Shown piece after piece: positions 13,023 through 42,810 of a DNA stretch of 64,000 bases. A program made the translations under genes and the position numbers. Where the stretch lies: positions 143,052 through 207,051 of the forward strand of contig JBAZHC010000003.1 of assembly GCA_041652575.1 (NCBI GenBank), in the 5' to 3' direction. Origin of the DNA: Phycisphaerae bacterium. GTDB lineage: Bacteria; Planctomycetota; Phycisphaerae; Sedimentisphaerales; UBA12454. The notes under the pieces are model-generated. The model made no database searches. It was not told where the DNA came from and saw only the letters and a program-made list of their open reading frames with translations. Within the stretch, counting starts at the first letter, position 1, and every line of letters starts with the position of its first letter.

Positions 13023-13043
13023 GGTTCATAAATCCAAAAAATC

Positions 13044-13085
13044 TACATTTTCGTATTTCGCCAACAGTTATATTACATTATTGTA
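13044..13085 (+). promoter_or_regulatory. Candidate enhancer: TACATTTTCGTA and TACATTATTGTA, 30 bp apart
   Basis: The sites are at 13044-13055 and 13074-13085, which is 132 and 102 bp upstream of the -24 element at 13176. Confidence 0.55.
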
Positions 13086-13175
13086 ATTATCGCCAAACAC
13101 AACAAGCCGAATAAATTTTCCATAACTTATTTATAAATAAACAGTTAAAAGAATTTATACACAAAAAATAACGAT

Positions 13176-13191
13176 TGGCACAATTATTGCA
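13176..13191 (+). promoter_or_regulatory. Sigma-54 (-24/-12) promoter
   Basis: TGGCAC-AATTA-TTGCA is a perfect consensus. The 16-mer is identical to the one at 15193. Confidence 0.85.
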
Positions 13192-25401: not shown

Positions 25402-25436
25402 ATATTCTGTAAAATAGTCGAAAAACGGGAAATAAA

Positions 25437-27077
25437 ATGAGTTTAAGAACGGGCCTGGCACAAATCAATACCTCCGTTGGGGATTTTGCCGGAAATATTG
25501 ATAAAATAAAACAGATGTACGTCCGCGCAAAGGATGCGAACGTCGATTTGCTTATTTTCCCGGAATTAAGCGTTTGCGGCTATCCTCCCGAAGATTTATT
25601 GCTCAAAAAACACTTCCTCGCTGAAAACAAAAAAGCCGTCGAAAAAATCGCAAATGATTGCCCGGATATTACGATAATGACAGGGTTCGCCGAGGTCGAT
25701 GACGGACTTTGCCACAATTCGCTCGCCGTCCTGCAATCGGGAAAAATTTTAAAAGTTTACCGAAAAGCCCTGCTTCCCAATTACGGCGTCTTTGACGAAA
25801 AAAGATATTTTTCCGCCGGTTCCGAGCCGGTTGTTGTAAAAATAAATAATATATCCGTCGTTTGTACGATATGCGAGGACATCTGGGAGCTTCGCTGGCT
25901 CAAAGATTTCCTCTCTCCCGTTTCCGAGAAAAGTCTTATCGTTAATATCTCCGCTTCCCCGTTCCACGCGGGCAAAATCCATCAGAGATTAAGCCTCCTG
26001 CAGGACTGTGCAAAAATACTCAACTGCTCTGTCGCCTATTGCAACATCGTCGGCGGACAGGACGAACTCGTATTCGACGGCAGAAGCATTTTCGTTGACT
26101 CCGAAGGTAAACTTATCGCAAAAGCAAAGGCGTTTGAGGAAGATTTGCTTATCGCGGATTTGGAAGCCGGCGGGCATATAACATCCCAGTCGGTGCCGGT
26201 AAAGACTGATTATATCGAAGAGATTTATAAGGCCCTTGTGCTCGGCACAAAGGATTACATAAGAAAGAACGGTTTCAAAAAGGTTCTTATCGGCTTAAGC
26301 GGCGGAATAGATTCGGCCCTTACCGCGGTTATTGCGGTTGACGCTCTTGAGAAAGAAAATGTCATCGGCGTTACAATGCCGACAAGATTTAACGTTTCCG
26401 AAACGATAAACGACGCTGGAGTTATCGCGAAGAATCTCGGTATTGAATTTCATAACATCCCCATCGAGCCTGTGCTGGGAAGTTTCAACCAGGAACTTGC
26501 CAAAGTCTCCGGCTGGAGCGACAAAGGCCTTGCCTATGAAAATCTTCAGGCCAGAATCAGGGGCACAATCCTGATGTCGATGAGCAATCAGTTCGGCCAT
26601 CTCGTTTTGACGACAGGTAACAAAAGCGAAACGGCCGTTGGCTACTCGACTCTTTATGGCGATACCGCAGGCGGTTTTGCGGTAATAAAAGATGTGCCCA
26701 AAACAGTCGTCTATCAGTTAAGCGAATACGTAAATAAGCTGCACGGCCGGGAAATTATCCCGCAAAGCGTAATCAAGAGAATACCGACTGCCGAGCTTCG
26801 CTTCGACCAGAAAGACAGCGACTCGCTGCCTGAATATGATATTCTCGACGGAATTTTAAAGGCTTATATCGAAGAAGAAAAATCGCTGCCTGAAATTATC
26901 AGTCAGGGTTTCGACGCTCAAATGGTATTAAAGGTTATTGGAATGGTTGACAGAAATGAGTATAAACGGCGTCAGTGTCCGCCCGGCGTTAAAATCACGC
27001 CGAAAGCGTTCGGAAGAGACAGAAGAATGCCGATTACAAATCTTTATCGACAGCAGATTCCAGGAAAAAATATTTAG
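25437..27077 (+). CDS. nadE: Glutamine-dependent NAD+ synthetase (CN-hydrolase domain plus NAD synthetase domain)
   Basis: The N-terminal nitrilase-like domain contains FPELSVCGYPPEDL and CEDIW. The synthetase domain has the SGGIDS P-loop. Confidence 0.93.
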   Translation: MSLRTGLAQINTSVGDFAGNIDKIKQMYVRAKDANVDLLIFPELSVCGYPPEDLLLKKHFLAENKKAVEKIANDCPDITIMTGFAEVDDGLCHNSLAVLQSGKILKVYRKALLPNYGVFDEKRYFSAGSEPVVVKINNISVVCTICEDIWELRWLKDFLSPVSEKSLIVNISASPFHAGKIHQRLSLLQDCAKILNCSVAYCNIVGGQDELVFDGRSIFVDSEGKLIAKAKAFEEDLLIADLEAGGHITSQSVPVKTDYIEEIYKALVLGTKDYIRKNGFKKVLIGLSGGIDSALTAVIAVDALEKENVIGVTMPTRFNVSETINDAGVIAKNLGIEFHNIPIEPVLGSFNQELAKVSGWSDKGLAYENLQARIRGTILMSMSNQFGHLVLTTGNKSETAVGYSTLYGDTAGGFAVIKDVPKTVVYQLSEYVNKLHGREIIPQSVIKRIPTAELRFDQKDSDSLPEYDILDGILKAYIEEEKSLPEIISQGFDAQMVLKVIGMVDRNEYKRRQCPPGVKITPKAFGRDRRMPITNLYRQQIPGKNI

Positions 27078-27099
27078 CTGACAGCACGGATATAAAAAA

Positions 27100-30000
27100 A
27101 TGCCCAAACGTACAGATATCCATAAAATAATGATAATAGGCTCCGGCCCTATAGTTATAGGCCAGGGCTGCGAGTTCGATTATTCCGGCGCACAGGCCTG
27201 CAAGGCCCTGAGAAAAGAAGGCTATCAGGTCATTCTGGTCAACAGCAACCCTGCGACGATTATGACCGACCCGGAACTTGCCGACCGCACTTACATTGAG
27301 CCGATTACTCCGGAGATGATTGAGAAAATCATCCAGAAGGAAAAACCGGATTGCATCCTGCCGACTCTCGGAGGCCAAACCGGACTCAACACCGCTGTCG
27401 CCCTCGCCGAAAGTGGCATCCTGAAAAAGTATAACGTAAAACTTATCGGCGCAAACCTTGCGACAATTAAAAAGGCCGAAGAACGGGACAAATTCAAAAA
27501 AATAATTATCGATATCGGCCTTGAAGTACCTAAAAGCGGCTACGTACAAACGTGGGAACAGGCGCAGAAAATCGTCCAGCAAATCGGTTTCCCCGCCATT
27601 ATCCGTCCTTCTTATACTCTCGGCGGAACAGGCGGAAACATCGCGTATAACGCGGAGGAATATAAGGAGTTCATCCATTGGGGCCTGAGTTTAAGTCCAA
27701 AAAGCCAGGTTCTTGTCGAAGAATCCGTAATCGGCTGGAAAGAATACGAACTCGAAGTAATGCGAGACAGAAAAGACAATGTCGTGATTGTCTGTTCGAT
27801 AGAAAATCTCGACCCGATGGGCGTTCACACCGGCGACAGTATTACAGTTGCTCCCGCCCAGACTCTTACTGATAAAGAATACCAGACGATGCGCGATGCC
27901 GCCCTGAAAATTATCCGGGCCATCGGCGTCGAGACCGGCGGCTCGAATATTCAGTTCGCCATCAATCCGGAAAATGGCAAGATGTATGTAATTGAAATGA
28001 ACCCGCGTGTATCGAGAAGCTCCGCACTGGCTTCCAAGGCCACAGGTTTTCCGATTGCGAAAATCGCTTCCCTGCTGGCGGTCGGATATACTCTTGACGA
28101 GATACCGAACGACATAACCAAAAAGACGCCGGCCTGTTTTGAGCCGACGATTGACTACTGCGTCGTCAAATGGCCGCGGTTTACATTTGAAAAGTTCCCC
28201 GCGACAAATTCAGAGCTTACCGTCCAGATGAAAAGTGTCGGCGAAGCTATGGCTATCGGCAGAACATTCAAAGAAGCGTTTCAGAAAGCCATACGTTCTC
28301 TTGAAATAGACCGCTATTCACTCGACAGAAAACATATTGACTCGAAGATTGATAATGAACGGCTGAAACAAATCCTGCGCAAGAGCCAATGGGACAAAAT
28401 CTGGTATGTCGCCGAAGCCTTGCGAAGAAAATTCTCCATAGAGGAAATTTACAACTTCACAAAAATCGACCCATGGTTCCTGAACAATATCAGTCAAATT
28501 GTTAAGTTTGAAGACAAATTAAGCATAAAAAATCTTAAGCAGGCGAAAAAACTTGGCTTCAGCGATAAATACATCGCCTCGAAATTGAATATTCCCGAAC
28601 CGCAGCTTAGAAAACAGCGGCTCGAAGCGGGAATTTCCGCCGTTTATAAGATGGTCGATACCTGCGGCGCCGAATTCGAGGCAAATACGCCCTACCTGTA
28701 TTCTACTTATGAAGACCAGTGCGAGGCAAACCCGACGGCAAGGAAGAAAGTTATCATTCTCGGCGGCGGACCGAACAGAATCGGCCAGGGAATTGAATTC
28801 GATTACTGCTGCTGCCACGCGGCCTTTGCCTTAAAGGAAATCGGCATCGAATCCATAATGGTAAACTGCAACCCTGAAACTGTCAGTACCGATTACGACA
28901 CATCCGACAGGCTGTATTTTGAGCCTTTGACTTTTGAAGATGTAATGAACATCATCGACAAAGAAAAACCAGACGGCGTTATCGTCCAGTTCGGCGGTCA
29001 GACCCCTTTGAAACTTGCCAACGCCCTGTCGAAAGCCGGCGTAAAAATTATCGGTACAAGTCCCGACAGCATCGATGCCGCTGAAGACAGAAAGCGTTTC
29101 AATAAAATAGTTGAAAAGCTCAAACTCAATCAGCCGCCCAGCGGAACCGCGATGAATTATCAGCAGACCGTCAAAATCGCCAAAAAGCTCGGCTACCCCC
29201 TGCTTGTCAGACCATCTTTCGTTCTCGGCGGAAGAGCAATGCAAATTGTTTATGACGAAACGGAACTACAGGCCTGCGTTGAAAGAGCTATCGCGGTTTC
29301 AGAAGAGCACCCGATTCTTATTGATAAATTCCTCGACGATGCTGCCGAACTCGACGTTGATGCAATCAGCGACGGCAAAATCGTCGTCATCGGCGGAGTT
29401 ATGGAACACATCGAAGAGGCCGGCATACATTCAGGCGATAGTGCCTGTTCTCTGCCGCCGTTTTCGCTAAATCAGGATTTAATTAAGGAAATCAAACGTC
29501 AGACAAAGCTGCTCGCGCTCGAACTGAAAGTAAAAGGCCTGATGAACGTTCAATTCGCCGTAAAGGACGACAAGATTTACATACTCGAGGTCAATCCGAG
29601 AGCTTCAAGAACAATTCCATTTGTCAGCAAGGCCATCGGCGTTCCTCTCGCCAAACTTGCCGCCAAGGTAATGGCAGGCAAAACGCTCGAAGAACTCGGA
29701 TTCACAGAAGAAACGCACCGGAGTCATTTCTCCGTCAAGGAAGCTGTCTTTCCGTTCCTGAAATTCCCCGGCTGCGACACTCTGCTTGGCCCGGAGATGC
29801 TTTCTACCGGCGAGGTAATGGGGCTCAGCGACGATTTTGGTATTTCTTACGCCAAGTCGCAGATTGCTTCCGGCAATTCTCTGCCGACGAGCGGAAATAT
29901 CTTTATAAGCGTTAAAGACGCCGACAAAGCCAAAGGCGTTGAAATAGCGAAAAAGCTTCACCAGATGGGCTTTAAGCTTTTCGCCACGAAAGGCACCTGT

Positions 30001-30285
30001 ATCGAGCTGATTAAGAACAATGTGCCGTCGGAGTTCGTACTCAAAATGAATGAAGGCAGGCCGAACATCGTCGATTTGATTATAAACAATCAGGTCGCCC
30101 TGATTATAAATACGACTGTCGGCAAGCAGACTATAAAGGATTCGTTCCTGATAAGACGAACCGCTCTCGACCGCAACGTGCCTTACACCACGACAATCAG
30201 GGGCGCTTCAGCGGTTACAAGAGCGCTCGAATCGATGAAGCAGAAAAAAACCGAAGTAAAACCAATACAATTGTATTACAGATAA
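27100..30285 (+). CDS. carB: Carbamoyl-phosphate synthase large subunit
   Basis: [30 protein letters not shown], duplicated ATP-grasp halves and a C-terminal MGS-like domain. Confidence 0.97.
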
Positions 30286-30295
30286 AGGAAATAAA

Positions 30296-31411
30296 GTGAA
30301 AGGCATATTACTGCTCGAAGATGGAACATGTTTCAAAGGCTCAGGTTTTGGAGCCCAGGGCAGAAAATGCGGAGAAGTTGTATTCAATACCGCCATGAGC
30401 GGCTATCAGGAAATTCTCACAGACCCGTCTTATCACGAACAGATTATTACTATGACCTATCCTTTAATAGGTAATTACGGCACAAATTCGCTGGACGTTG
30501 AGGCCGAAAAGCTTTATCTGAGCGGCTTTATCGTAAAGGAAAATTGTTCCTTCCCGAGCAATTGGAGAAATACAATTTCGCTCGATGATTATCTTAAAAA
30601 ACATAAAGTTCCCGCAATCGAAGATATCGATACAAGAAAATTAGTTATGCTCCTCCGCCAAACAGGCTCGATGAAAGGAATTATCTGTACAGACGGCACA
30701 ACTATCAAAAATCTGAAAGACGAACTTGATAAATACCCTGGCCTTGTCAACAGAGACATCGTCAAGAACGTCTGCGTCAGGAAAAGCTATACCTGGGACA
30801 AACCAGTTGAAGACGAATTCGGAATATTACATAAAGCCGAGACGAAATATAACGTAGTCGCTTTCGATTATGGCATTAAGCAGAACATTCTTCGGCTGCT
30901 CGTCTCGCATGGCTGCAAAGTTACAGTCGTCCCGGCAAGTACGACCGCACAGGAGGTTCTTAGACTAAAACCGGATGGTGTATTTTTAAGCAACGGCCCC
31001 GGCGACCCCGGCCCTATAAGCTACGCCATTGATACGATTCATAAACTGCTCGGCAAGGTTCCCATTTTCGGAATCTGTCTCGGCCATCAGCTTCTCGGCC
31101 TGGCCCTGGGCGGAAAAAGTTATAAACTGAAATTCGGTCACCACGGCTCAAATCATCCGGTCAAAAATCTCATTACGGAAAAGATTGAAATCACCAGTCA
31201 GAACCACGGTTTTTGCATCGACCCCGATTCTCTGCTCGACAAAGATATACAGATTACGCATATGAATCTGAACGATAATACGCTCGAAGGTTTCCGCTGT
31301 AAAAAGGTGCCGGCTTTTGCCGTTCAGTATCACCCCGAAGCATCCCCCGGCCCCCACGATTCAAACTATCTGTTCGACGATTTTATCGAAATGATGGAAA
31401 AAGCAAAATAA
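30296..31411 (+). CDS. carA: Carbamoyl-phosphate synthase small (glutaminase) subunit
   Basis: GTG start after AAGGAA. The sequence contains AMSGYQEILTDPSY, and the glutaminase triad context is GICLGHQLL with HPE. Confidence 0.95.
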   Translation: MKGILLLEDGTCFKGSGFGAQGRKCGEVVFNTAMSGYQEILTDPSYHEQIITMTYPLIGNYGTNSLDVEAEKLYLSGFIVKENCSFPSNWRNTISLDDYLKKHKVPAIEDIDTRKLVMLLRQTGSMKGIICTDGTTIKNLKDELDKYPGLVNRDIVKNVCVRKSYTWDKPVEDEFGILHKAETKYNVVAFDYGIKQNILRLLVSHGCKVTVVPASTTAQEVLRLKPDGVFLSNGPGDPGPISYAIDTIHKLLGKVPIFGICLGHQLLGLALGGKSYKLKFGHHGSNHPVKNLITEKIEITSQNHGFCIDPDSLLDKDIQITHMNLNDNTLEGFRCKKVPAFAVQYHPEASPGPHDSNYLFDDFIEMMEKAK

Positions 31412-31510: not shown

Positions 31511-32575
31511 ATGAAAAAGGCCATTATTTGTGCTATATTTTTCTTCCTTGGTTTTCCTGCCTATGCAATTGATTACAACGATTTTCCGCCAGAACTCCGG
31601 CAGATGCTTGATAAAAATATCAGCAGAATTGAACCCAACCAAATATGCATAGCCGGCCGTGTAACCTTCAGCGATGGCGTAAGCATCAACAGCGGCAAAG
31701 ACCTAAAAATAAATCTTCTTAGAGGCATTGATATGCCTTTATGGGTCTATGAAGATGGCATGTTTATGATGGATAAGCCTTACAAATATGATTCTGATGC
31801 TCCATGGAAAATTTCAATCAATGCTTTTGGATACGAACCTGTTAATTCGACTATTGCGATCCCTAAAGGAAAAATATTTTATATCGAATATATCCTTGCC
31901 AAACCGCCGCCTGAAAAACTATCGACCATCACGGGAACTATCGTTAATGAAAACAATGAACCCTTGCAAGATGTTCATATCAGTCTGTCGTTCCCTAATT
32001 CCTCTCACGGAACCGGCGAAGAACCCGGTAGAGAGACAATTACAGGATCCGACGGCCGATATTTATTTGATTATCTTTCTTCCGGAGAACATAAAATTTT
32101 TATTAGCGTCATTGGTTATGCATCTAATATTGAGTTTTTCAAATTGCCCCCCGGCCGGACCATTACAAAGGATTTTAAACTCTCGAAAAATCTCAGGATT
32201 GTTATAGATTATGTTTATCAGGACAACAACTCCACTGATTTTAAAGATGCAAATCTTCAAACATTTACGATAGAATGGCCAAATGGGTGCGAAATGGATT
32301 TTTCCGAAGGCCAAACAATTAACATGGCCAATGTAACTAAGCCTGATATCTATTTAAGGCAGGAATTTGATTCATTAAAATTTGAAGTTCATTATGCCAA
32401 TGGCAAGAATGGTTTTTTCGATTTGGGGCCTCTGGACTTTGATTCTGTTGAAAACGCTCCAAAGTCGAATTACAGTTTAATAACTGTGCCCTGTGAAATC
32501 GGACATGTTTATGCCGTTCGAACATACGAAGGCAAATACGCAAAGTTTATAGTGGAAGATATTCTGCAGGAGTAA
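31511..32575 (+). CDS. Secreted hypothetical protein with a carboxypeptidase-regulatory-like (CarboxypepD_reg) domain
   Basis: GAAGGAG RBS and the ATG at 31511. Signal peptide is MKKAIICAIFFFLGFPAYA. ITGTIVNENNEPLQDVHISL...GSDGRYLFDYLSSGEHKI is typical of the beta-sandwich domain. Confidence 0.6.
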   Translation: MKKAIICAIFFFLGFPAYAIDYNDFPPELRQMLDKNISRIEPNQICIAGRVTFSDGVSINSGKDLKINLLRGIDMPLWVYEDGMFMMDKPYKYDSDAPWKISINAFGYEPVNSTIAIPKGKIFYIEYILAKPPPEKLSTITGTIVNENNEPLQDVHISLSFPNSSHGTGEEPGRETITGSDGRYLFDYLSSGEHKIFISVIGYASNIEFFKLPPGRTITKDFKLSKNLRIVIDYVYQDNNSTDFKDANLQTFTIEWPNGCEMDFSEGQTINMANVTKPDIYLRQEFDSLKFEVHYANGKNGFFDLGPLDFDSVENAPKSNYSLITVPCEIGHVYAVRTYEGKYAKFIVEDILQE

Positions 32576-32623
32576 ATATCTTCACCAAAGGCGATACTTC
32601 GATAATTTTAGTTTTTGATATTT

Positions 32624-35044
32624 TTATTGCAATTTCTCATACGGCCACATCTCGATTCCGCCGTCGAGAACTTTAACATCCTTAAAGCCATGATGTTTCA
32701 ATATAATCGCCGCCTCGTAGCCTCTTAGCGAATAATTACAAAACGCCACAATCGGTCTTTCCTTATCAAGCTCGACGAACCGTGACCGCAGCGAAGCCAG
32801 CGGAATAAATACCGAACCGTTCAGCCTCTGCTGCCTGTATTCCGACGGCGTCCTTACATCCAGCAGCACAAAATCCTTCTTGTCCTGTATCATATTCCAG
32901 ACATCCCGCGGATTTATGCCGTCCATCAGGCCGTCGAGTTTATTTCTGGCGACATTGGCCGCCGTAATAATATTGTCAATCACCGGCGCATAAGGCGGAG
33001 CATAGCACAAATCAAGATTCGAAATCTGCTCGACCGTCATCTTGCCCGCAATCGCAGTCGCCGCGACATCGATTCGCTTATCGGTATTGCCCGGGCCTAT
33101 CGCCTGTGCGCCGAGAAGTCTTCGGCTGTTTTTATCGACAACAAGTTTCATCATCACCATCGCGGCCCCCGGCACAAAATGCTCCCTGTCCGGCGCCGGA
33201 ACAAGAACCGAAACGACATCAAACCCGTCCCGTTTTGCCATAAATTCCGTCAGTCCCGTAACCGCGACGTTATAATCAAACACCTTGCACGCCACGGTCC
33301 CGAGAATCGGGCCGAACATATCGTTTCCGCCGCATATATTTGTCGCCGCAACTCTGCCCTGTTTGTTGGCAGTCGAGCCTAAAGGCACATAACTTGGCTT
33401 TTGCGTAATCATATCGATATTCTCAACGCAATCGCCCGCCGCGTAAACATCCGTATCGGATGTCTGCATTTTCGGATTAACCTTTATCGCGCCGGTCGTG
33501 CCGATTTCAAGACCCGCCTGCCGTGCCAGACTTACTTTAGGCTTATTACCTACCGCGATTATCACAAGGTCCGCAGGATACGCGCCCTTATCCGTTACTA
33601 CGCACTCGACAGTATCCGCGCCGTTAAATTTTATTACCTGCGTATCGCTTAGAACTCTCACGCCGTGCGATTCGAGCTGATTTTCAATAAGCATCGCCAA
33701 CTCCGCGTCGAGCAGCCGGAATATCTGCGGCAATTTTTCAACTATCGTTACCCTGCATCCTTTTTTAACGAGGGCTTCCGTCATTTCAATTCCGATAAGA
33801 CCGCCGCCGACAATAACGACGTCGCGTGCCTTGCCCCTGTCAAGAGCGGCTTTTATTCCCTCGGCGTCCGTAACGCCGTGCAGCGTAAAAATATTTCCGA
33901 GTTTAATTCCTTCAATCTCCGGCTTAACCGGCTCCGAACCGGTCGCAAGTACGAGTTTATCGTAATCCAGCACCGACTTGGCATTATCGACTAAATGTTT
34001 TACACGAACCTGTTTTTTCTTACGGTCGATTTCAATCGCTTCGGTCTGATTCATAAGATGAACGTTCTTAACCTGCTGGAAGAATATCGGGTCGCGCACG
34101 ACGCCCGCCGGCGAGCTCATCAGTTCGTTCTGGTCCTTGACGGTCCCGCCGATATAATAAGGCAGTCCGCAGCCCGCGTAAGATAGCAACCTGCCCTTTT
34201 CGATAATCGTTACATCAGCGTCAGGGTCGAGCCGCATAACCTTCGCCGCGACTTTCGGCCCCGCCGCCACTCCGCCAATTATCACTACCTTCATTGGCTT
34301 TTTCATCTTTGTATCTCCCGTGATTTGTTCCGCTGCCGTTTGTGCCGCAGCTTTAAGACTTATTACAATTTCCGTCCCGCCAAGATGCGATTTCTCGATA
34401 TGTACATTCCCGCCCGCCGCGTCGATTATCGCCTTTACAAAAGCAAGCCCAAGTCCCGTACCCGGCCGGGACGAGTCGCGGGCTCCTGCCGTCCTGAAAA
34501 AAGGCTGAAAAACTTTTTCATAATTCTCTTCTGAAATTCCAATCCCCGAATCGGCGATTCTTATCTCGTATGCGTCCGCGGTCTTGTCGTACAAAAGAAG
34601 CGTTTCAATCCTGCCGTTGTCAGGCGTGTATTTTATCGCGTTTGAAAGCAATGCTTCGATAGCTTCGGTTATCGCCGCTTCATTACCGGCCGACCACGCC
34701 GGCTCAGCGTCTATCTTTGCCGTAAGGGTAATATTGTGTCTGCTCGCCTGCTGGGTATAAGCGGCCGATTCTTTGCGGAGAATTGCTGAAAGCTCGACCT
34801 GTCCTTTCAACGATGCGGGGTCGTTAACGGCCCTCGATATTACAAGGAGCCTCTGCGCGGTAAGCAGAGATTCGTCGCAGCGTCCGATTGCCCGCTGCAA
34901 AAGGTCTTTCTGCTTGGCCGTAACAGGCCCGGCAAATTCGCCCAAAAGTGTCTCAAGGATTGTACTTATGGATGCAATCGGCCCTTTAAGCTGATGCGCT
35001 ACGAGAGAGGCGAACTTCAAAGGGTCTGATATGATATTCTTCAT
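32624..35044 (-). CDS. In-frame fusion of a histidine-kinase core (DHp and HATPase_c) to a CoA-disulfide reductase/NADH-oxidase-family flavoprotein with a C-terminal rhodanese domain
   Basis: Kinase part, aa 1-246: H-box VAHQLKGPIASI, N-box LLSNAIKYT, G1 DSGIGI, G2 GTGLGLAFV. Flavoprotein part, aa 247-806: VVIIGGVAAGPK, the redox Cys in SYAGCGLPYY, a second GxGxxG (VVIVGGGLIGIE) and the rhodanese Cys in VAFCNYSLRG. There is no stop codon between the two parts. An internal GGGAG-N8-ATG is at 34306. Confidence 0.8.
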   Translation of the reverse strand: MKNIISDPLKFASLVAHQLKGPIASISTILETLLGEFAGPVTAKQKDLLQRAIGRCDESLLTAQRLLVISRAVNDPASLKGQVELSAILRKESAAYTQQASRHNITLTAKIDAEPAWSAGNEAAITEAIEALLSNAIKYTPDNGRIETLLLYDKTADAYEIRIADSGIGISEENYEKVFQPFFRTAGARDSSRPGTGLGLAFVKAIIDAAGGNVHIEKSHLGGTEIVISLKAAAQTAAEQITGDTKMKKPMKVVIIGGVAAGPKVAAKVMRLDPDADVTIIEKGRLLSYAGCGLPYYIGGTVKDQNELMSSPAGVVRDPIFFQQVKNVHLMNQTEAIEIDRKKKQVRVKHLVDNAKSVLDYDKLVLATGSEPVKPEIEGIKLGNIFTLHGVTDAEGIKAALDRGKARDVVIVGGGLIGIEMTEALVKKGCRVTIVEKLPQIFRLLDAELAMLIENQLESHGVRVLSDTQVIKFNGADTVECVVTDKGAYPADLVIIAVGNKPKVSLARQAGLEIGTTGAIKVNPKMQTSDTDVYAAGDCVENIDMITQKPSYVPLGSTANKQGRVAATNICGGNDMFGPILGTVACKVFDYNVAVTGLTEFMAKRDGFDVVSVLVPAPDREHFVPGAAMVMMKLVVDKNSRRLLGAQAIGPGNTDKRIDVAATAIAGKMTVEQISNLDLCYAPPYAPVIDNIITAANVARNKLDGLMDGINPRDVWNMIQDKKDFVLLDVRTPSEYRQQRLNGSVFIPLASLRSRFVELDKERPIVAFCNYSLRGYEAAIILKHHGFKDVKVLDGGIEMWPYEKLQ

Positions 35045-35160
35045 GAAATACTATTTTACATTGTATTTATGAAATTTCAAACATGATTTTTATGTTGCCC
35101 TAATCATCGACAACTCTTTAACCCCCGGACCTTTACCCGCCTTGGCGGCAATCTCGTCTT

Positions 35161-35287
35161 GTCATTCCCGCGAAAGCGGGAATCCATAAATATTTAGCCC
35201 GCCGTTTCACGGCGGGTTCCGTCATTCCTCCGCAACCCTAAGGACTCCTGATGGAGGACACCTTATGGTGGACCTTTACGGAGGAAT
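35161..35287. repeat. REP/MITE-like cluster of palindromic units
   Basis: GTCATTCC occurs at 35161 and 35221, exactly 60 bp apart. The hairpins are ATTCCCGC-gaaa-GCGGGAAT (35164-35183), CCCGCCG-tttca-CGGCGGG (35198-35216), and ATTCCTCCG (35224-35232) paired with CGGAGGAAT (35279-35287). Confidence 0.6.
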
Positions 35288-35351
35288 CTATTAAAACGAT
35301 TAAAATTATCCTGCCATTATGCTAATAATTTCAACCCCGTTTAGATATATT

Positions 35352-35585
35352 TTAAGCATTGAGTTTATCAACTACAAGACTTAACGCGGCATCGAAATCA
35401 TTTACTATCATTGATCCGGGAATCCTCAGTGTCTTGAAACCAAGATTTTTAAGTTTGTCAGTTATTATATTATCTTTTTGTTTGGCTTTTGGAGACCGGT
35501 GGTGTTTAGTAGAATCACAAAAAATGGCCAAACGGCAATCAGGAAAATAAAAATCAGCTTCTGTGAGCAATGTTTTATCTTTCAA
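35352..35585 (-). CDS. Short restriction-endonuclease-fold protein (DUF559/Vsr-like), probably a remnant
   Basis: 77 aa. ADFYFPDCRLAIFCDSTKHH...DKLKNLGFKTLRI resembles the core of Vsr/DUF559-type nucleases. There is no N-terminal partner domain and no adjacent methyltransferase. Confidence 0.4.
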   Translation of the reverse strand: MKDKTLLTEADFYFPDCRLAIFCDSTKHHRSPKAKQKDNIITDKLKNLGFKTLRIPGSMIVNDFDAALSLVVDKLNA

Positions 35586-35682
35586 CTATTTTCCCCGTTA
35601 CCTTCGCCTTAAATATTCCACTAATCAGATGAGAAAGACTCTAAAAACGGAGTATGGCAATATTGCTCTTTTATATAAGAAT

Positions 35683-35759
35683 AGCCACAAAGGCACTAAG
35701 ACACTAAGTTTATAGAATATTAGCATTTTTTTTCTTTGTGCCTTTGAGTCTTAGTGGCT
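35683..35759. repeat. Composite inverted/direct repeat immediately upstream of the ECF sigma gene
   Basis: AGCCAC (35683) pairs with GTGGCT (35754), and CAAAGGCAC (35688) with GTGCCTTTG (35738). CACTAAG occurs twice (35694, 35702) and pairs with CTTAGTG (35750). The arms are not in nested order. Confidence 0.6.
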
Positions 35760-35772
35760 ACTATATCTCGCT

Positions 35773-36342
35773 GTGGAAATCGATTTCAACGACATTCAGG
35801 CCTGTTTAAACGGCGATAATGACGCCTATCGGCGGCTTATGCAAAGGTATGAGCCGCAAATAGTCAGGCTTATGTGGCGTTTTACCCGCGACAGAAATGA
35901 GGTTGAGCAGCTTGTTCAGGAGGCCTTTGTCGAGGCCTTTTTCAGTCTTAAAAGTTACAAAGGTCAGGGCCCATTTTTGCACTGGCTCAACAAGATTGCA
36001 ACTCGTGTCGGCTACAGGTTTTGGAAGCAGCGGGACAGGGCCGGATTATTTGTGCCGATGGATGATATGGACAATTTTGATGCTGTTGACGAGAGTAACG
36101 CAAATGAAATTGATTCCGCTCAGGCCGCTGAAGTTTTGCATTCTTTATTTAATCGGCTGCAAGCTACTGACAGGCTGATACTTACGTTGATGTACTTTGA
36201 GGAATGTTCTATCGAGGAAATCGCCAAAAGGACTGGCTGGACGAAAGCGGGAACGAAAATGCGGGCGATGCGTGCTCGCGGAAAATTGAAAAAACTTGCG
36301 GAAAAAGAAAATTTTTCGGAGAAATTCGAATGGATAAAATAA
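35773..36342 (+). CDS. RNA polymerase sigma factor, ECF (sigma-70 group 4)
   Basis: GTG start. Region 2 is YRRLMQRYEPQIVRLMWRFTRDRNEVEQLVQEAFVEAF. Region 4 is LILTLMYFEECSIEEIAKRTGWTKAGTKMRAMRARGKL. Confidence 0.85.
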   Translation: MEIDFNDIQACLNGDNDAYRRLMQRYEPQIVRLMWRFTRDRNEVEQLVQEAFVEAFFSLKSYKGQGPFLHWLNKIATRVGYRFWKQRDRAGLFVPMDDMDNFDAVDESNANEIDSAQAAEVLHSLFNRLQATDRLILTLMYFEECSIEEIAKRTGWTKAGTKMRAMRARGKLKKLAEKENFSEKFEWIK

Positions 36343-37174: not shown

Positions 37175-39082
37175 ATGAAAAATATTTCACATAACATATT
37201 TAAAAATAAGAAGTTAGACGTAAAAGCTTTTCTCGCGGCCGGTCTAATTGCTCTTATTACATCACAAATCGGATGCAGCCCTGCCAAGTATCGCAGTGAT
37301 ATGGACAAAACCGCTGGGAAGATTATCACCGAAAAACAGCTCGAGGCGACGGGAAAAACAAGCCAATTCAGTATCGAAAGGCCAAGCGATATCCTCCGCA
37401 GAAGACTGCTTAAAGACCAGAAATTACCAACTTCGAGCAAGGCTTCTTTCGGAACGGATGCCCTGCAAAAGATAGAACACTGGCCGGAGAAAGATTATCC
37501 TGTCGCAACTAATGGCGGCAATGTCGCTGAGGTAAATGACGTTAACAATTCAATCACTATCTCGCTTTTGCAGGCATTACAAATCGGCGCCTATAACAGT
37601 TTCGATTATCAAACCCAGAAAGAGAAAGTCTTTCAGTCGGCTCTGTCTCTCGAACTGGAACGGTATGCTTTCAGAAATACATTTATCGCGCAAGTGCAAA
37701 ATCTGCTCAGTACCGATACGACCGGAAACAGAACCGTCAGCGGAACAATCACAAGCGGCAATGTCGGGGTCAGCAGGAAATTCGAATCCGGAGCGGAAGT
37801 AAGTTCGGCACTTGCAATCGACCTTGCAAACCTGCTGACACTTGGCGGAGCTTCATCGGTCGGAATCGCAGGCGAAGGCAGCATCTCGATACCGTTGTTA
37901 AGAGGGTCGGGAAGACATATAGTCAGGGAGCCGCTGACACAAGCGGAAAGAAATACGATTTATTCGATATGGAACTTCGAAAGATATAAAGAAGAATTCG
38001 CGGTAAATATCGCAAGCAAATATCTTGCGGTTCTTCAGCAGTTAGATTCGATTAAAAACAGCGAAGCGGATTATCGCAGCAGGATAGCGTCAGCGAAACG
38101 AAGCAGAAGCCTGGCAGACGCGGGAAGAATTCAGGAAATCGAAGTTGACCAGGCAGTTCAGAACGAATTAAGTTCGCGTCAAAGATGGATTACCGCAACG
38201 CAATCATATAAAAGACAGCTCGATTCATTTAAGGTTTTCCTCGGATTGCCGCCGGATGCCGCCATAGAACTTGACCCGAATGAACTTAAGGTACTGGCAT
38301 CATCGATGGAACAGATTATCCGCCGAATGAACGTACAGGAAGCAAATCTGCCCGACAGCAATCAGGTATTAATAAACGAACTTGTCGAAGTGCTCGAGCC
38401 TGATTATAAAAACGCGGGGCCATACGAAATGGAAGAAGCAACTGCGATGAAACTGGCCTTCGATAACAGGTACGACCTGAAATCAGCAGACGGTGCAGTT
38501 TACGATTCCCAAAGAGCCGTTATAGTGGCAGCAGATGCTTTGGGGGCGGAACTGACTTTTCTCGGTTCAGCCGATATCGGCTCAAGAAGGAACCGTATTG
38601 CGGATACAACTGCCGATAACAGCAGATTTGTAGCGAACAGAGGAGTGTTTTCGACGCTGCTGACACTTGACCTGCCGCTTGATAGAACGACAGAAAGCAT
38701 CGACTATCGAAACAGTCTTATCGGCCTCGAACAGTCTGTCCGAAATATACAGGCAACGGAAGATACGATAAAAACAGAAGTCAGAAACGCACTTCGCGAT
38801 TTGCTCGAAGCGCGAGAAAATATGCACATACAGGCGAAAGCCGTAAGTGTCGCTGAAAAACGAGTTAAAAGCGTCAATATGTTCCTTGACGCCGGCAGAG
38901 CCCAGATACGCGACCTTCTCGAAGCACAGGATTCTCTTCTGGCGGCACAGAACTCGCTGACTGCTGCGGTCGTTAATTACCGGACAGCGGAACTTGCAAT
39001 TCAGCGGGACACAGGCGTATTGGAAGTAGATGAAAAAGGGTTATGGAAAGAATATCAGCCCGGAGGAAACCAAAATGACTAA
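37175..39082 (+). CDS. Outer-membrane efflux protein, TolC family
   Basis: Lipoprotein-like signal (LITSQIGCSP) and duplicated OEP coiled-coil/beta-barrel halves (AQDSLLAAQNSLTAAVVNYRTAELAIQRDTG). Confidence 0.8.
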   Translation: MKNISHNIFKNKKLDVKAFLAAGLIALITSQIGCSPAKYRSDMDKTAGKIITEKQLEATGKTSQFSIERPSDILRRRLLKDQKLPTSSKASFGTDALQKIEHWPEKDYPVATNGGNVAEVNDVNNSITISLLQALQIGAYNSFDYQTQKEKVFQSALSLELERYAFRNTFIAQVQNLLSTDTTGNRTVSGTITSGNVGVSRKFESGAEVSSALAIDLANLLTLGGASSVGIAGEGSISIPLLRGSGRHIVREPLTQAERNTIYSIWNFERYKEEFAVNIASKYLAVLQQLDSIKNSEADYRSRIASAKRSRSLADAGRIQEIEVDQAVQNELSSRQRWITATQSYKRQLDSFKVFLGLPPDAAIELDPNELKVLASSMEQIIRRMNVQEANLPDSNQVLINELVEVLEPDYKNAGPYEMEEATAMKLAFDNRYDLKSADGAVYDSQRAVIVAADALGAELTFLGSADIGSRRNRIADTTADNSRFVANRGVFSTLLTLDLPLDRTTESIDYRNSLIGLEQSVRNIQATEDTIKTEVRNALRDLLEARENMHIQAKAVSVAEKRVKSVNMFLDAGRAQIRDLLEAQDSLLAAQNSLTAAVVNYRTAELAIQRDTGVLEVDEKGLWKEYQPGGNQND

Positions 39083-40856
39083 AAATAAAATATATCTCAT
39101 CGGTATCGCGGCCATTGTTTTAATAGTCGTTCTGCTATCGGCATCATTTTTAACAGGCAAAGATGCTTCCGAACAGGCCGGCCCAACATACAAGGTCCAG
39201 CACGGCCCTTTGACCATTAGTTTTGTCGAGTCCGGTACTATCAAGGCAAGAGACCAGATAATACTTAAAAACGAAGTCGAGGGCAGAACATCCATAACTT
39301 ATGTTATACCCGAAGGTGAGCGAGTTAAAAAAGGCGATTTGCTTATCGAACTCGACGTAAGCAGCCTTGAAGACGAAAAAATCGACAGGGAAATCGCAGT
39401 TCAAAACGCCGAAGCTGCATATATAAGCGCAAAAGAAAACCTGGCGGTTGTCGAGAACCAGGCAAAAAGCGATGTGGATCTGGCAACACTTACGCTTGAA
39501 TTCGCCAAACAGGACCTGGAGAAATACGTAAAAGGTGAATATCTTTCAGAACTTCTGAAAGCGAATACCGACATCACACTTGCCGAAGAAGAATTAACCA
39601 AGGCACAGGATTATCTTAACTGGTCTGAAAAGCTTTATGACGCAAACTATATTCCCGAAACGGAATTAAGCGGCGACAAACTCACAAAGAAGAAATGCGA
39701 ACTAAATGTTGAAATCGCAAGAAACAGTAAAGAGCTGCTTACCGATTACACCTATAAACGAAATCTTGCAAAACTTCAAAGCGATGTCAATCAGGCCGAT
39801 ATGGCTATGGAACGCACCGAACGCAAGGCCAACGCTGACGTAATACAGGCAAAAGCCGAACTGAAGGCAAAAGAAGCGGAATATGGGCGGCAGAAAGACA
39901 AACTCGTAAAAGTCGAAGACCAAATAAAAAAGACAAAAATTTATGCGCCTGAAGACGGATTGGTTATTTACGCGACAAGCGCAAAAAATACCGGCTGGCA
40001 CAATGCAAGCGAGCCTCTTGATGTCGGTAGAGAAGTCCAGGAAAGAGAAGAGTTGATTTACCTTCCGACGGGAAACGCATCGAATGCCGAAGTTATGATT
40101 CACGAGTTCAATCTTAAGAAAACCATGAAAGAACTGCCGGTTATTATTACGGTAGACGCACTACAGGGAAAGACCTTCTACGGGACAATAAAATCCATCG
40201 CGCCGCTGCCGGATGCCAGAAGTATGTTTATGAACCCGGATTTAAAACTTTACAATACGGTAATCTATGTAGAGGGCGAAGACCCGGCACTGAAAACAGG
40301 AATGAGCTGCCAGGCGGAAATAATCGTTAAACAATACGAAGACGCTTTTTATATTCCTCTCCAGGCAGTCACAAAAATCGGGGCCGATTACACGGTTTAC
40401 GTAAAGAACGGCAAAAAATTCGAGCCAAAACAGGTAAAAATCGGACTTGATAACAACAAGGTTATTCACATCCTCGACGGACTTAAAGCAGGCGAAACAA
40501 TCCTGCTGAATCCGCCATTGAAATCGACTTCGGGAGTATCGCAGAGCCGCAGCGTATCTGAACAAAACGGCGATGGAAATATCGATGGTATTCAGGGAAA
40601 AATATCACAAGGACTGAAAAACGCTGAAAACAATCAAAGTTCGCAGGAGCCAAATCAACCGGCAAACAGCGAAACGGCAAATATAGAGCAAATGAAAAGA
40701 CAGTTCGAGAATATGACCCCGGAAAAGCTCGAAGAAATGAAGAAAAAATTCGAGAATATGTCACCCGAAGAAAAAGAAAAGGCAATGCAGCAAATGCGGG
40801 GAGGCGGCAAAACATCAGGTTCCAGAAGACGGAACAGAAGCGAAGAAAGTCAATAA
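39075..40856 (+). CDS. Periplasmic adaptor (membrane fusion protein), HlyD/MacA family, with a low-complexity charged C-terminal tail
   Basis: GGAGG RBS. The ATG at 39075 overlaps the TolC stop (ATGACTAA). It has a TM anchor, a lipoyl motif (VKKGDLLIELD), a long coiled coil and a beta-barrel domain. Confidence 0.85.
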   Translation: MTKNKIYLIGIAAIVLIVVLLSASFLTGKDASEQAGPTYKVQHGPLTISFVESGTIKARDQIILKNEVEGRTSITYVIPEGERVKKGDLLIELDVSSLEDEKIDREIAVQNAEAAYISAKENLAVVENQAKSDVDLATLTLEFAKQDLEKYVKGEYLSELLKANTDITLAEEELTKAQDYLNWSEKLYDANYIPETELSGDKLTKKKCELNVEIARNSKELLTDYTYKRNLAKLQSDVNQADMAMERTERKANADVIQAKAELKAKEAEYGRQKDKLVKVEDQIKKTKIYAPEDGLVIYATSAKNTGWHNASEPLDVGREVQEREELIYLPTGNASNAEVMIHEFNLKKTMKELPVIITVDALQGKTFYGTIKSIAPLPDARSMFMNPDLKLYNTVIYVEGEDPALKTGMSCQAEIIVKQYEDAFYIPLQAVTKIGADYTVYVKNGKKFEPKQVKIGLDNNKVIHILDGLKAGETILLNPPLKSTSGVSQSRSVSEQNGDGNIDGIQGKISQGLKNAENNQSSQEPNQPANSETANIEQMKRQFENMTPEKLEEMKKKFENMSPEEKEKAMQQMRGGGKTSGSRRRNRSEESQ

Positions 40857-40858
40857 CG

Positions 40859-41536
40859 ATGGATATAGTAAGATTCAGCAATATCCACAAAATATATGAA
40901 ATGGGCGCTGAGCCGGTAAGGGCACTCGACGGTGTAAGTGTGGCATTTCAGAAAGGAAGTTTCTGGGCAATTATGGGGCCCAGCGGTTCAGGAAAAAGTA
41001 CAATGATGAATATACTCGGATGCCTCGACCGCCCTACTTCGGGACAGTATTTTCTTGAAAACAAAGACATAAGCACACTTAACGATGACGAATTAAGCGA
41101 TATCAGACTTAAATATATAGGTTTTGTTTTTCAAAGTTTTAACCTGATTCCACAACTGACAGTTCAGAAAAATATTGAACTGCCTCTTTACTATCTAGGA
41201 TGGGAAGCGGAAAAAAGCGCAGAAAAAGCAAAAGAACTTGCGGCAAAAGTCGGGCTTGAAACAAGGCTCAATCATCGGCCTTCGGAATTGTCCGGCGGAC
41301 AGATGCAGAGAGTAGCCGTTGCCCGTTCTTTGGCGGCAGACCCGCATATTATTCTCGCCGATGAACCGACAGGCAACCTTGACAGTCATACCGGCGACCA
41401 GATTATGGAACTTCTCACCAACCTTAATAAAGAAGGAACAACTATAATTATGGTAACACATGAGCCTGATATCGCGGCACATGCGCATAACAGATTACAT
41501 ATGAAAGACGGTTTGATAGAAAGAATCGATAACTAA
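40859..41536 (+). CDS. ABC transporter ATP-binding protein (MacB/LolD-type)
   Basis: Walker [10 protein letters not shown], signature [15 protein letters not shown] and Walker [12 protein letters not shown]. Confidence 0.93.
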
Positions 41537-42810
41537 TGCCTTTGCATCAATCAAAATTCGCCAGAAATATATGGCTCGGCATTGAAAACCTGCTGCTGCA
41601 TAAACTCCGCTCGTTTTTGACGATGCTCGGCGTTGTGTTCGGCGTCGGAAGCGTTGTAGCAATGCTTGCGGTCGGAGAGGGAGCAAGCAAGGAAGCATTG
41701 CAGCGGATTCAAAAACTCGGTAGTACCAATATAATCATAAACTCAATAAAAGCAATCGAAGACCAGTCTTCAAGCGCACAGCAATCGAGAATGAGTATGT
41801 ACGGCCTGACATATATGGACTACCAGCGAATCAGAGAGAGTTTCCCGAATGTACAGCAGGTATCTCCGGCAAAATTGATACGCAAGGATTCGCGGGTCGG
41901 TTCAAATACACTGGAACTCAGAATAGTCGGCACTACGGAGCAATGGTTCGACCTGGTGCCGCGAGAAATTCTCGCAGGCAGAGTTTTCGAGAAAAAAGAT
42001 GTAGACGATTTTTCAGCGGTAGCTGTACTGACAGAGTTCGGGGCGAGAAAATTACTGGCAACGAAAAACACCATCGGGCAATCCATTAAAATAGGCGGAG
42101 ATTCGTTCGAAGTGGTCGGAATAATTAAAACCGAATCCGGCCAGGCCGGCAATATCCAGATACCCGACCAGCAGGTAGATGCCTATATCCCTTTGAGCAC
42201 TGTACGCAAATACTACGGTGATTTATTTTTTCAAAGATCATCGGGCAGCAGAAGTCTGGAACTGGTCGAACTGCACCAGATTATCGTACAGGTTAACAGC
42301 ACGGAAAATGTAGAATCTACTGCGGCAGGAATCGAACGAATGCTGCAGAACCTCCATAAGAAAAAAGATTATACCATAAGCGTACCCCTGGCTCTATTAA
42401 AAGAGGCAGAGGCGACTAAACAAAGATTTAATATCGTGCTCGGTTCAATCGCAAGCATAAGTCTGCTTGTCGGCGGCATCGGCATTATGAATATTATGCT
42501 CGCTTCGGTTACGGAAAGAACTCGTGAAATCGGAATTCGGCGAGCTATAGGAGCCAAAAGACGGCAAATTATCATTCAATTTCTTATCGAGACCGTTGTG
42601 CTTTCAACTATCGGAGGAATTGTAGGGCTTATTATGGGAATTATCATTCCTGTTATCATTACTTACTTTGCCGGAATGCCTACCGTTATAACACTTCAAA
42701 GCATTCTCCTGCCGCTTTTTATCAGCGTCGGAATAGGCATAGTTTTCGGCTTATACCCGGCGATAAACGCGGCAAGAGTCGACCCTATCATCGCACTCAG
42801 ACACGAGTAA
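41536..42810 (+). CDS. ABC transporter permease, FtsX/MacB-type with a periplasmic domain
   Basis: MacB_PCD-like periplasmic region between TM1 and TM2, and a C-terminal FtsX domain (SVTERTREIGIRRAIGAKRRQI). Confidence 0.9.
   Translation: MPLHQSKFARNIWLGIENLLLHKLRSFLTMLGVVFGVGSVVAMLAVGEGASKEALQRIQKLGSTNIIINSIKAIEDQSSSAQQSRMSMYGLTYMDYQRIRESFPNVQQVSPAKLIRKDSRVGSNTLELRIVGTTEQWFDLVPREILAGRVFEKKDVDDFSAVAVLTEFGARKLLATKNTIGQSIKIGGDSFEVVGIIKTESGQAGNIQIPDQQVDAYIPLSTVRKYYGDLFFQRSSGSRSLELVELHQIIVQVNSTENVESTAAGIERMLQNLHKKKDYTISVPLALLKEAEATKQRFNIVLGSIASISLLVGGIGIMNIMLASVTERTREIGIRRAIGAKRRQIIIQFLIETVVLSTIGGIVGLIMGIIIPVIITYFAGMPTVITLQSILLPLFISVGIGIVFGLYPAINAARVDPIIALRHE

Follow-up and report, generated by a model that had tools for sequence, protein, structure and literature searches.

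A histidine kinase core fused to an Npsr-type flavoenzyme and a rhodanese domain: a candidate enzyme-as-sensor kinase in Planctomycetota and other phyla

Our analysis concerned a 64,000-nucleotide stretch of DNA from a Phycisphaerae bacterium of the Sedimentisphaerales (assembly GCA_041652575.1, contig JBAZHC010000003.1, positions 143,052 to 207,051 of the forward strand), referred to here as a whole as the window. On its reverse strand, positions 32624-35044 hold a single open reading frame (ORF) of 806 amino acids (aa) that begins with ATG and contains one stop codon, at its end. The encoded protein has an identical entry at NCBI, MFA5292108.1, which is named 'FAD-dependent oxidoreductase [Phycisphaerae bacterium]' (FAD, flavin adenine dinucleotide). 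The gene comprises a histidine kinase core, a linker, an Npsr-type reductase and a rhodanese domain. An earlier note had described it as one ORF joining a kinase core to a reductase-rhodanese enzyme, and both the frame and the order of the Pfam domains agree with that description. The Pfam matches were HisKA (aa 10-70), HATPase_c (aa 121-232, E 1.2e-22), Pyr_redox_2 (aa 251-544, E 1.6e-66), Pyr_redox_dim (aa 585-688) and Rhodanese (aa 712-800, E 1.6e-17), and Pyr_redox was also matched. The HisKA match is weak, its 21.6 bits lying under the gathering score of 26.9; precomputed matches to PF00512 are present in some relatives.

The kinase core opens with a DHp helical hairpin (aa 8-74; 34823-35023), which was delimited from the weak HisKA match and the secondary structure of an AlphaFold2 model and consists of helix 1 (aa 8-34) and helix 2 (aa 43-74). 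His17 (cat) and the residue that follows it, Gln18 (cag; position H+1), were read from the sequence at 34991-34996, within the motif AHQLKGP. The CA (HATPase_c) domain (aa 82-232; 34349-34801), assigned from Pfam and conservation, carries an N box (N135..KYTP), a G1 box (D165-S-G-x-G169), an F box (F182/R184) and a G2 box (G195xG197xG199L). No stretch of the protein is compatible with a transmembrane segment; Kyte-Doolittle means over 19 residues peak at 1.5, on the Rossmann strands. An N-terminal sensor is absent, only 16 residues lying ahead of His17, and the core is thus soluble and sensor-less, as had been proposed. The linker between the modules (aa 233-250; 34295-34348) is Ala/Gln-rich in this protein and was delimited by model confidence and by its variability within the family. 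The AlphaFold2 monomer had a mean predicted local distance difference test score (pLDDT) of 82.9 and a predicted template modelling score of 0.61. Its modules are confident and linker residues 236-247 are disordered (pLDDT <50).

Residues 251-700 (32945-34294) form a predicted pyridine-nucleotide-disulfide oxidoreductase of the Npsr/CoADR type, dependent on FAD and on reduced nicotinamide adenine dinucleotide (NADH), as judged from Pfam, phmmer and Foldseek. The C-terminal rhodanese domain (aa 705-800; 32645-32932) was found with Pfam and aligns with the rhodanese tails of 6PFZ and 3ICR. The best solved match to aa 251-800 was Npsr of Archaeoglobus fulgidus (AfNpsr, 6PFZ; phmmer E 5e-150), with a target-normalised Foldseek TM score of 0.95 and 44% identity, followed by B. 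anthracis CoADR-RHD (3ICR), S. loihica Npsr (3NTA) and the E. faecalis coenzyme A (CoA)-persulfide reductase (8A56). The class I fold is complete: it has a dimerisation domain and the dinucleotide motifs for both FAD and NAD(P)H. The acidic residue E436 follows the NADH Rossmann strand, and there is a G-x-V-R lid loop. A single redox cysteine stands in the motif S-x-x-x-C-x-L-P-Y; this is Cys292 (tgc, 34169-34171, in SYAGCGLPY), which aligns with the active-site cysteines of AfNpsr (6PFZ) and BaCoADR-RHD (3ICR) and is redox-active by homology. The rhodanese Cys769 (tgt, 32738-32740, in FCNYSLRG) belongs to a Cys-X5-Arg loop (C769-NYSL-R774) and aligns with Cys519 of AfNpsr. Both cysteine motifs were read as intact, in line with the earlier note. 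AfNpsr catalyses the NADH-dependent reduction of persulfides and polysulfide and none of CoA disulfide, and its Cys519 lies at the mouth of the CoA pocket (PMC7969121). Given the degree of identity to AfNpsr, the reductase of the window presumably binds CoA and carries out NADH-dependent persulfide/polysulfide reduction. Scores against the NCBIfam CoADR equivalogs were 435.2 (cut-off 578.8) and 394.5 (cut-off 458) for TIGR03385 and NF007123, respectively. Because it scores below these curated cut-offs, the protein should not be called a CoA-disulfide reductase; of the earlier label, a CoADR/Nox flavoprotein resembling persulfide reductases, the second part is well founded and the CoADR name is not.

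The fusion is old and widespread. We found 157 non-redundant full-length fusions with 48-86% identity from Planctomycetota (including anammox Brocadiia), Krumholzibacteriota, Hydrogenedentota, Verrucomicrobiota/Lentisphaerae and Thermodesulfobacteriota. Among 5.8 billion proteins, at least 120 clusters matched with 99-100% coverage and 55-86% identity at about 800-825 aa, and all are named solely 'FAD-dependent oxidoreductase' or 'sulfur reductase-like enzyme'. A GTDB scan with one genome per species gave 583 relatives, and among the best 80 of these the three-module ORF is intact in about 63 non-redundant genomes at species level, which represent at least five phyla. The labels of these genomes are Phycisphaerae/Sedimentisphaerales, Brocadiia (including a Kuenenia metagenome-assembled genome), Krumholzibacteriota, Hydrogenedentota, Verrucomicrobiota, Victivallales/Lentisphaerae and Thermodesulfobacteriota. 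Over the 157 fusions, mean pairwise identity is 65% in the reductase, 56% in the rhodanese domain and 46-50% in the kinase. The better conservation of the reductase argues for a working enzyme and not a relic, and judging from these sequences both halves are under purifying selection. The residues ahead of the histidine mostly number 16-20, and no member has an N-terminal sensor. In two loci (L044 and L067) the kinase part is broken.

Conservation of the two cysteines differs. Cys292 is invariant (157/157), and the rhodanese cysteine is kept in 133 members and replaced by Gly or Ser in 24 (15%), including all six Brocadiia (anammox) members examined; loci with such replacements include L059, L065, L066, L069, L070, L079, L027, L030, L041 and L058. 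Since the loop arginine and the reductase cysteine stay conserved, the rhodanese domain has apparently been kept in a non-catalytic form in these 24 proteins. Because Cys292 persists where the rhodanese cysteine has gone, the FAD/Cys292 centre, and not a rhodanese relay, is what all members have in common.

A neighbour-joining tree of the reductases, rooted on AfNpsr and without support values, places the Brocadiia fusions at the base and a clade of kinase-less reductase-rhodanese proteins (L072-L087) within the fused clade. This nesting suggests that the kinase-less forms are secondary losses. Neither a kinase remnant nor a split kinase gene was found beside L072-L087, even at E 10. Free-standing kinase cores also exist: P0125, P0127, P0143 and P0153 are 238-239 aa long and stop exactly where the linker of the fusion starts. 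Three of the four have an AHQ H-box and P0153 has AHH. P0125 (239 aa) is encoded at 466-1185 in L088 and at 148-867 in L089, followed by a convergent prepilin peptidase gene. Downstream of P0127 (239 aa), a gene of >430 aa that could be a split reductase begins after 52 nt. The fusion gene of the window forms a local peak in GC content (0.51-0.52 over 32500-35000; flanks 0.38-0.49, window 0.446), and in the reductase tree the Sedimentisphaerales clade of the window has as its sister group members that bear the labels Krumholzibacteriota and Fibrobacteraceae. In combination, the two observations hint at horizontal transfer of the fusion gene.

The kinase half retains its ATP-binding apparatus throughout the family. 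His17 is present in all 156 fused sequences compared, and N135, D165/G167/G169, F182 and G195/G197/G199 are each conserved in 157/157. This strict retention of the histidine and every ATP-binding box argues that phosphoryl chemistry has been retained. The H-box itself is unusual. Position H+1 is glutamine in 156/156 sequences, in place of Glu/Asp. Position H+4, where Thr/Asn would be expected, is Gly21 in the window protein and Ser (89), Gly (44), Glu (10), Ala (10) or Thr (2) in the family, so that Ser/Gly/Ala/Glu account for about 98%. Among the 131 closest non-family kinases, taken from an exhaustive search of 1.84 billion representative proteins, H+1 is Glu/Asp in 120 (92%) and H+4 is Thr/Asn in 115 (88%). 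The earlier note had listed an intact H-box together with intact N, G1, F and G2 boxes; the four boxes are as described, and the H-box, with its invariant Gln at H+1 and its Gly at H+4, is not. The best solved match to the kinase half was CpxA (4BIW, E 3e-18), with which the DHp hairpin aligns, and NCBIfam similarities were to the PnpS, PhoR and WalK cores. Only about ten representatives in the same search were >40% identical to the core, and nearly all of them are fusions or fragments thereof, which marks the core as a distinct lineage. In studied kinases, the acidic residue at H+1 serves as the general base for autophosphorylation and Thr/Asn at H+4 governs phosphatase activity; the Agp1 D529H variant is inactive, and DrBphP, which lacks an acidic H+1, is a phosphatase acting on a single-domain receiver (PMC8292422). 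The balance of kinase and phosphatase activities is not predictable from sequence.

When all ORFs neighbouring the fusions were clustered, one recurrent partner emerged, a single-domain receiver. Of 67 non-redundant fused loci searched with a hidden Markov model (HMM) of this receiver family, 13 have a member no more than 10 kb away (E 1e-42 to 1e-48), and none was detected near 15 kinase-less loci. The two genes are adjacent in nine loci. In five of these (L029, L059, L063, L065 and L070, from Brocadiia and Phycisphaerales) the receiver lies upstream on the same strand with a gap of 4-40 bp or an overlap, an operon-like arrangement, and in four (L025, L036, L042 and L057) it lies just downstream. 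The receivers retain the DD pair, the phospho-acceptor Asp, the Ser/Thr and the Lys-Pro. They fall into two subtypes. One, termed 'operonic', pairs with the fusion in Brocadiia and Phycisphaerales; the other, termed 'hox-type', is 124 aa long, and its gene stands last in a hoxF-hoxU-hoxY-hoxH-hoxW-receiver operon, which encodes an NAD-linked [NiFe] hydrogenase and its maturation protease. Such an operon adjoins the fusion in L003, L019, L036, L057 and L148. The gene hypD adjoins the fusion in L018 and follows it in the Kuenenia genome. In a Krumholzibacteriota locus the fusion is followed by NuoF-like genes and the receiver, and in L042 the receiver comes after a molybdopterin oxidoreductase.

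The association was also approached from the receiver side, using 80 metagenomic loci from the hox-type subset (L090-L169). The receiver closes a hoxFUYHW operon in nearly all of them (e.g. L092, L097, L105, L118 and L153). In about 15 of the 80, a membrane kinase lies beside it, with six transmembrane segments (6TM) of PilS-like type, GAF, HisKA and HATPase_c. Most of these receiver-flanking 6TM-GAF kinases have H-boxes of the form AH[N/Q]L[KR][AS]P. They were not selected for similarity and are 29% identical to the fused cores (28% in the DHp), compared with 26.5% (DHp 22%) for the top 131 generic kinases and 24% (DHp 20%) for unrelated neighbour kinases. Since the 6TM-GAF kinases are closer than the generic ones, the fused core appears to belong to, or to adjoin, the lineage of kinases that serve these receivers, and to differ from them in its input. 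This kinship moderately supports the receiver as the partner of the fusion. In L063, three genes lie on the same strand at 8972-13177 with gaps of 2-10 nt: a GAF-kinase (449 aa, 'AHCIKN'), the receiver (131 aa) and the fusion. This cluster is a candidate branch point from two kinases to one receiver.

In the general view, the input of a histidine kinase comes from sensor domains at its N-terminus by way of a spine of helices. The fusion shares with HisKA kinases (CpxA 4BIW, EnvZ, HK853, PhoR and WalK) the DHp hairpin with His-x-x-x-x-Pro and the CA boxes. Unlike canonical members, however, it has no transmembrane segment, HAMP, PAS, GAF or helix before the DHp, its additional domains are all C-terminal to the CA domain, and it has Gln at H+1 and Ser/Gly/Ala at H+4, not Glu/Asp and Thr/Asn. 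The solved and characterised Npsr/CoADR-RHD enzymes (6PFZ, 3NTA, 3ICR and 8A56) have the full fold, motifs and cysteines of the window's reductase, but they carry no kinase module, and 15% of the fused family lacks the rhodanese cysteine. CheA, like the fusion, has a regulatory domain (P5) C-terminal to its ATP-binding domain and a single-domain receiver, CheY, as its partner. However, its phosphorylated histidine is on a separate HPt and not on a DHp, its P5 binds receptors and CheW and contains no enzyme, and beyond the CA fold there is no sequence relationship. The [NiFe] regulatory hydrogenase HoxBC of Cupriavidus/Ralstonia, with the kinase HoxJ and the regulator HoxA, is an example of an enzyme-like sensor in hydrogenase control; HoxBC and HoxJ are separate proteins joined via PAS, unlike the fusion. 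The trigger enzyme PutA is a flavoenzyme and a regulator in which FAD reduction leads to DNA or membrane binding and not to phosphotransfer. In both cases a redox enzyme or a homologue of one informs a signalling module of substrate or redox state; neither HoxBC-HoxJ nor PutA contains a persulfide reductase of the pyridine-nucleotide-disulfide oxidoreductase class.

Several sulfur-responsive kinases have been described: NreB, with a [2Fe-2S]-PAS domain (PMC13478379, PMC9918477), DosS, with heme (PMC9062744), and TtrS/ThsS, with periplasmic sensors (PMC5408782, PMC11293645). These respond to sulfide, sulfane sulfur or sulfur oxyanions through two-component signalling, as we propose for the fusion, but they sense through N-terminal PAS, GAF or periplasmic domains and none does so through a fused catalytic flavoenzyme. 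Among HisKA-type proteins, DrBphP of Deinococcus radiodurans offers a likeness in three respects: it lacks an acidic H+1, a stand-alone receiver (DrRR) is encoded alongside, and a cofactor-bearing domain sets its output, as is proposed for the fusion (PMC8292422). It differs in having His at H+1, Glu at H+4 and a helix-linked N-terminal sensor, where the fusion has Gln at H+1 and an enzyme after the CA domain. Phosphatase-only behaviour has been demonstrated for DrBphP and is a possibility for the fusion.

Based on these observations, we think it somewhat probable that the protein is a cytoplasmic kinase with an enzyme as its sensor, which would convert the sulfane-sulfur/NADH redox state into phosphorylation of a CheY-like regulator. 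Because a sensor-less kinase is permanently joined to a complete sulfur-reducing flavoenzyme across more than 150 lineages of anaerobic bacteria, the flavoenzyme is probably the kinase's sensor. The architecture, the conservation of the catalytic residues in both halves, the age and spread of the fusion, the neighbouring receiver and the link to hydrogenase operons are observed; what we infer is the signal, the direction of information flow and the output. The Npsr-type reductase, probably still catalytic, would act as the input module on a flexible tether of 15-24 residues. The supply of NADH and sulfane sulfur would set the redox and occupancy state of the flavoenzyme dimer, the relevant states being oxidised or reduced FAD and Cys292 as a thiol or as a mixed disulfide or persulfide with CoA. 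This state would alter either the reach of the tethered CA domains to the DHp histidine or the engagement of the DHp with its partner, and would in this way set how far a dedicated CheY-like response regulator with a single domain is phosphorylated. The catalytic domain would thus receive its input from its C-terminal side, as happens in CheA, and not via an N-terminal helix. The invariant glutamine at H+1 and the small H+4 residue, which the 6TM-GAF kinases flanking this receiver family also have, would mark a subfamily with an altered kinase/phosphatase balance. The earlier idea that thiol or persulfide redox state is coupled to phosphotransfer is in our view the best-supported reading, both halves being conserved in all 157 fusions.

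As for its physiological role, the genomic context suggests that the system would report whether NADH goes to sulfur reduction or to an NAD-linked [NiFe] hydrogenase. This is proposed because the receiver closes that hydrogenase's operon in several lineages, and the regulator possibly balances hydrogen evolution against sulfur reduction. A more specific version, which we put forward as rather doubtful, is a 'trigger-enzyme kinase' in which the state of the reductase gates the His-Gln DHp, and the CheY-like protein then acts post-translationally on or with the [NiFe] hydrogenase. If this were true, anaerobic Planctomycetota, anammox bacteria and neighbouring phyla would have a protein-level switch that sends NADH towards either H2 evolution or sulfur reduction. 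Such a system would be a bacterial equivalent of the SurR sulfur response of archaea, assembled from two-component elements and with its input reaching a histidine kinase from the C-terminal side.

Several observations weigh against an enzyme-as-sensor kinase that signals to this receiver. The AlphaFold2 monomer shows no confident interface between kinase and reductase, and no structural route for the signal was seen. With the family HMM, no member of the receiver family was detected in the 64 kb window, where the earlier statement that no response regulator is nearby holds; it does not hold for the nine orthologous loci with an adjacent receiver. L008-L011 and L016, the loci most closely related to the window, also have no such receiver within 10 kb of the fusion. 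Of the 80 hox-type receiver loci, only one (L148) has the fusion as the neighbour; the usual neighbour is a 6TM-GAF kinase or none, the remaining loci having no kinase in reach. A second kinase stands beside the receiver in L063, L032 and L048, which makes the partner assignment ambiguous. A conserved operon around the fusion was ruled out, since neighbours other than the receiver vary by lineage; the Brocadiia operons themselves differ in their third gene, which is beta-lactamase-like, Pyr_redox_2 or Ddl-like. Within the protein, Gln replaces the general base at H+1 and H+4 is without Thr/Asn, so that either activity could be weak. Finally, loss of the rhodanese cysteine in 15% of members means that a persulfide relay through the rhodanese domain cannot be the universal input.

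Two rival explanations, both of which we regard as unlikely, accept the fusion as a functional protein. Under the first, information would flow in reverse: ATP binding or phosphorylation of His17, by the protein itself or by back-transfer from the receiver, would switch the reductase, which would be the output. The better conservation of the reductase half, with all catalytic residues intact, fits this idea, as does the fused core's lack of any recognisable input domain. Phosphate could be fed in by the separate 6TM-GAF sensor kinases that serve the receiver family elsewhere, and the order GAF-kinase, receiver, fusion in the L063 operon would suit such a route. However, we know of no precedent for DHp/CA modules controlling a fused enzyme. 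The flexible tether and its low-confidence packing offer no obvious allosteric path in this direction either, and free-standing reductases of the same clade work without a kinase module.

The second explanation, to which we likewise attach only a small probability, is that the kinase half is dead as a kinase and acts, in the manner of the bacteriophytochrome DrBphP, a light-activated phosphatase, as a redox-gated phosphatase or docking scaffold for the receiver, with another kinase providing the phosphate. The invariant Gln at H+1, set against 92% Glu/Asp in the nearest non-family kinases, points this way, as do the general-base role of the acidic residue, the inactivity of Agp1 D529H and the phosphatase activity of DrBphP (PMC8292422). 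Candidate phosphate donors are available in the second kinases beside the receiver in L032 and L048, which have canonical SHELK(T/S)P H-boxes, and in the 6TM-GAF kinases that are common neighbours of the receiver. On the other hand, invariance of the histidine and of the N, G1, F and G2 boxes would not be expected of a pure phosphatase or scaffold, and the Thr/Asn associated with phosphatase activity is missing from H+4. Most of the receiver-flanking 6TM-GAF kinases also have Asn or Gln at H+1. Because they share the amide, it looks like a trait of the subfamily that is compatible with the fusion being the sole kinase. Some active kinases, such as PhoQ, are likewise non-acidic at H+1.

The junction between the halves bears on a further alternative. 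Over the 157 fusions the linker varies in sequence, and its length is 15-24 aa. In the window it contains a candidate internal start (34304-34319, reverse strand), in which GGGAG (34319-34315) precedes an in-frame ATG (34306-34304; Met247) by 8 nt, just as the earlier note had described this ribosome-binding-site-like element. The pattern GGAG-N6-7-ATG-AAA-AAG is kept at the nucleotide level in 7/7 loci (the window and six relatives with 71-86% identity), within a linker that varies elsewhere. In the window's clade a 62 kDa reductase may also be produced on its own; coding constraint on Gly-Asp could explain the conservation of GGAG equally well. Met247 is present in 69/157 members and absent in more than half, and by this count the internal start is not a family trait. 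That the frame is an artefact or a very recent accident, and that the cell makes a separate kinase and reductase, would accord with this Shine-Dalgarno-like site kept in seven loci, with the occurrence of each half alone (L072-L087; the 239 aa AHQ core P0125) and with the broken kinase parts of L044 and L067, but it is extremely improbable, given an unbroken frame with constrained linker length and no stop in 157 sequences from independent assemblies, similar GC content overall and at third codon positions in both halves, the nesting of reductase-only forms within the fused clade and the absence of the internal Met from more than half of the family. An origin by assembly artefact or accident is already refuted by these conservation data. 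The recent loss of a stop codon suggested in the earlier note must likewise be abandoned, as the fusion occurs in several phyla down to 48% identity and is basal in the reductase tree, with kinase-less forms nested within it.

We found no description of a fusion of a kinase with a pyridine-nucleotide-disulfide oxidoreductase and rhodanese, or of a receiver gene closing hox operons, in the open-access literature, and fusions to oxidoreductases or rhodaneses go unmentioned in a 2026 preprint on the diversity of HisKA. Our results suggest a two-component kinase whose input is new in both class and topology. Should the enzyme indeed be the sensor, signals would enter by a new route and the pyridine-nucleotide-disulfide oxidoreductase would be a new class of sensor. 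It would possibly provide a direct link from sulfane-sulfur/NADH status to two-component signalling in little-studied anaerobes, among them anammox bacteria, Sedimentisphaerales, Krumholzibacteriota and Hydrogenedentota, in a family that is also tied to NAD-linked hydrogenase operons. The invariant His-Gln H-box is a natural test of the rule that autophosphorylation requires an acidic H+1. In addition, more than 150 database entries labelled 'FAD-dependent oxidoreductase' would conceal a signalling protein.

Upstream of the fusion gene, a consensus scan found a candidate sigma-70-like promoter, TTGAAA-16-TAAAAT (35053-35080, reverse strand), that ends 8 nt before the start codon. If it were used, the mRNA would be leaderless or nearly so, a prediction made with low confidence; in the same scan, sigma-70-like sites were no more numerous than the shuffled expectation. 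The intergenic region at 35120-35290 contains three short GC-rich hairpins, for example CCCGCCGTGAAACGGCGGG and CCCGCTTTCGCGGG, a 15 nt direct repeat GTCATTCC(C/T)(G/C)CG(A/C)AA with a spacing of 60 nt, and an exact 10 nt repeat, GGACCTTTAC, whose copies are 143 nt apart. Rfam gave no match at gathering score in the whole window and only chance-level matches at 34900-35900 (best E 0.065). A riboswitch or other known RNA in this hairpin-rich 5' region was ruled out on the absence of gathering-score matches.

Directly upstream of the fusion, a 77 aa ORF (35352-35585, reverse strand) matches only the C-terminal part of DUF559/MTES_1575 endonuclease-like proteins (profile positions 37-96 of 96) and is probably the remnant of a truncated gene. 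In L006 and L007, the equivalent upstream position is occupied by a phage-integrase gene. On the other side of the fusion gene, a housekeeping block on the forward strand (19431-31411) includes a 1518 aa ORF, then a GltD-like protein with Fer4_20 and Pyr_redox_2, as well as a glutamine-dependent NAD synthetase (CN_hydrolase and NAD_synthase) and ORFs resembling the large and small subunits of carbamoyl-phosphate synthase, for which the carAB label comes from reading the translation alone. This block is unrelated to the contexts of the fusion in other lineages. Beyond the 77 aa ORF, an imperfect inverted repeat of 27 nt with 78% complementarity and a 25 nt loop (35682-35760) immediately precedes a divergent extracytoplasmic function sigma-factor gene (35773-36342). 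After this gene come small ORFs and an efflux cluster of TolC-like, HlyD-like and MacB-type ATP-binding cassette genes (37175-42810).

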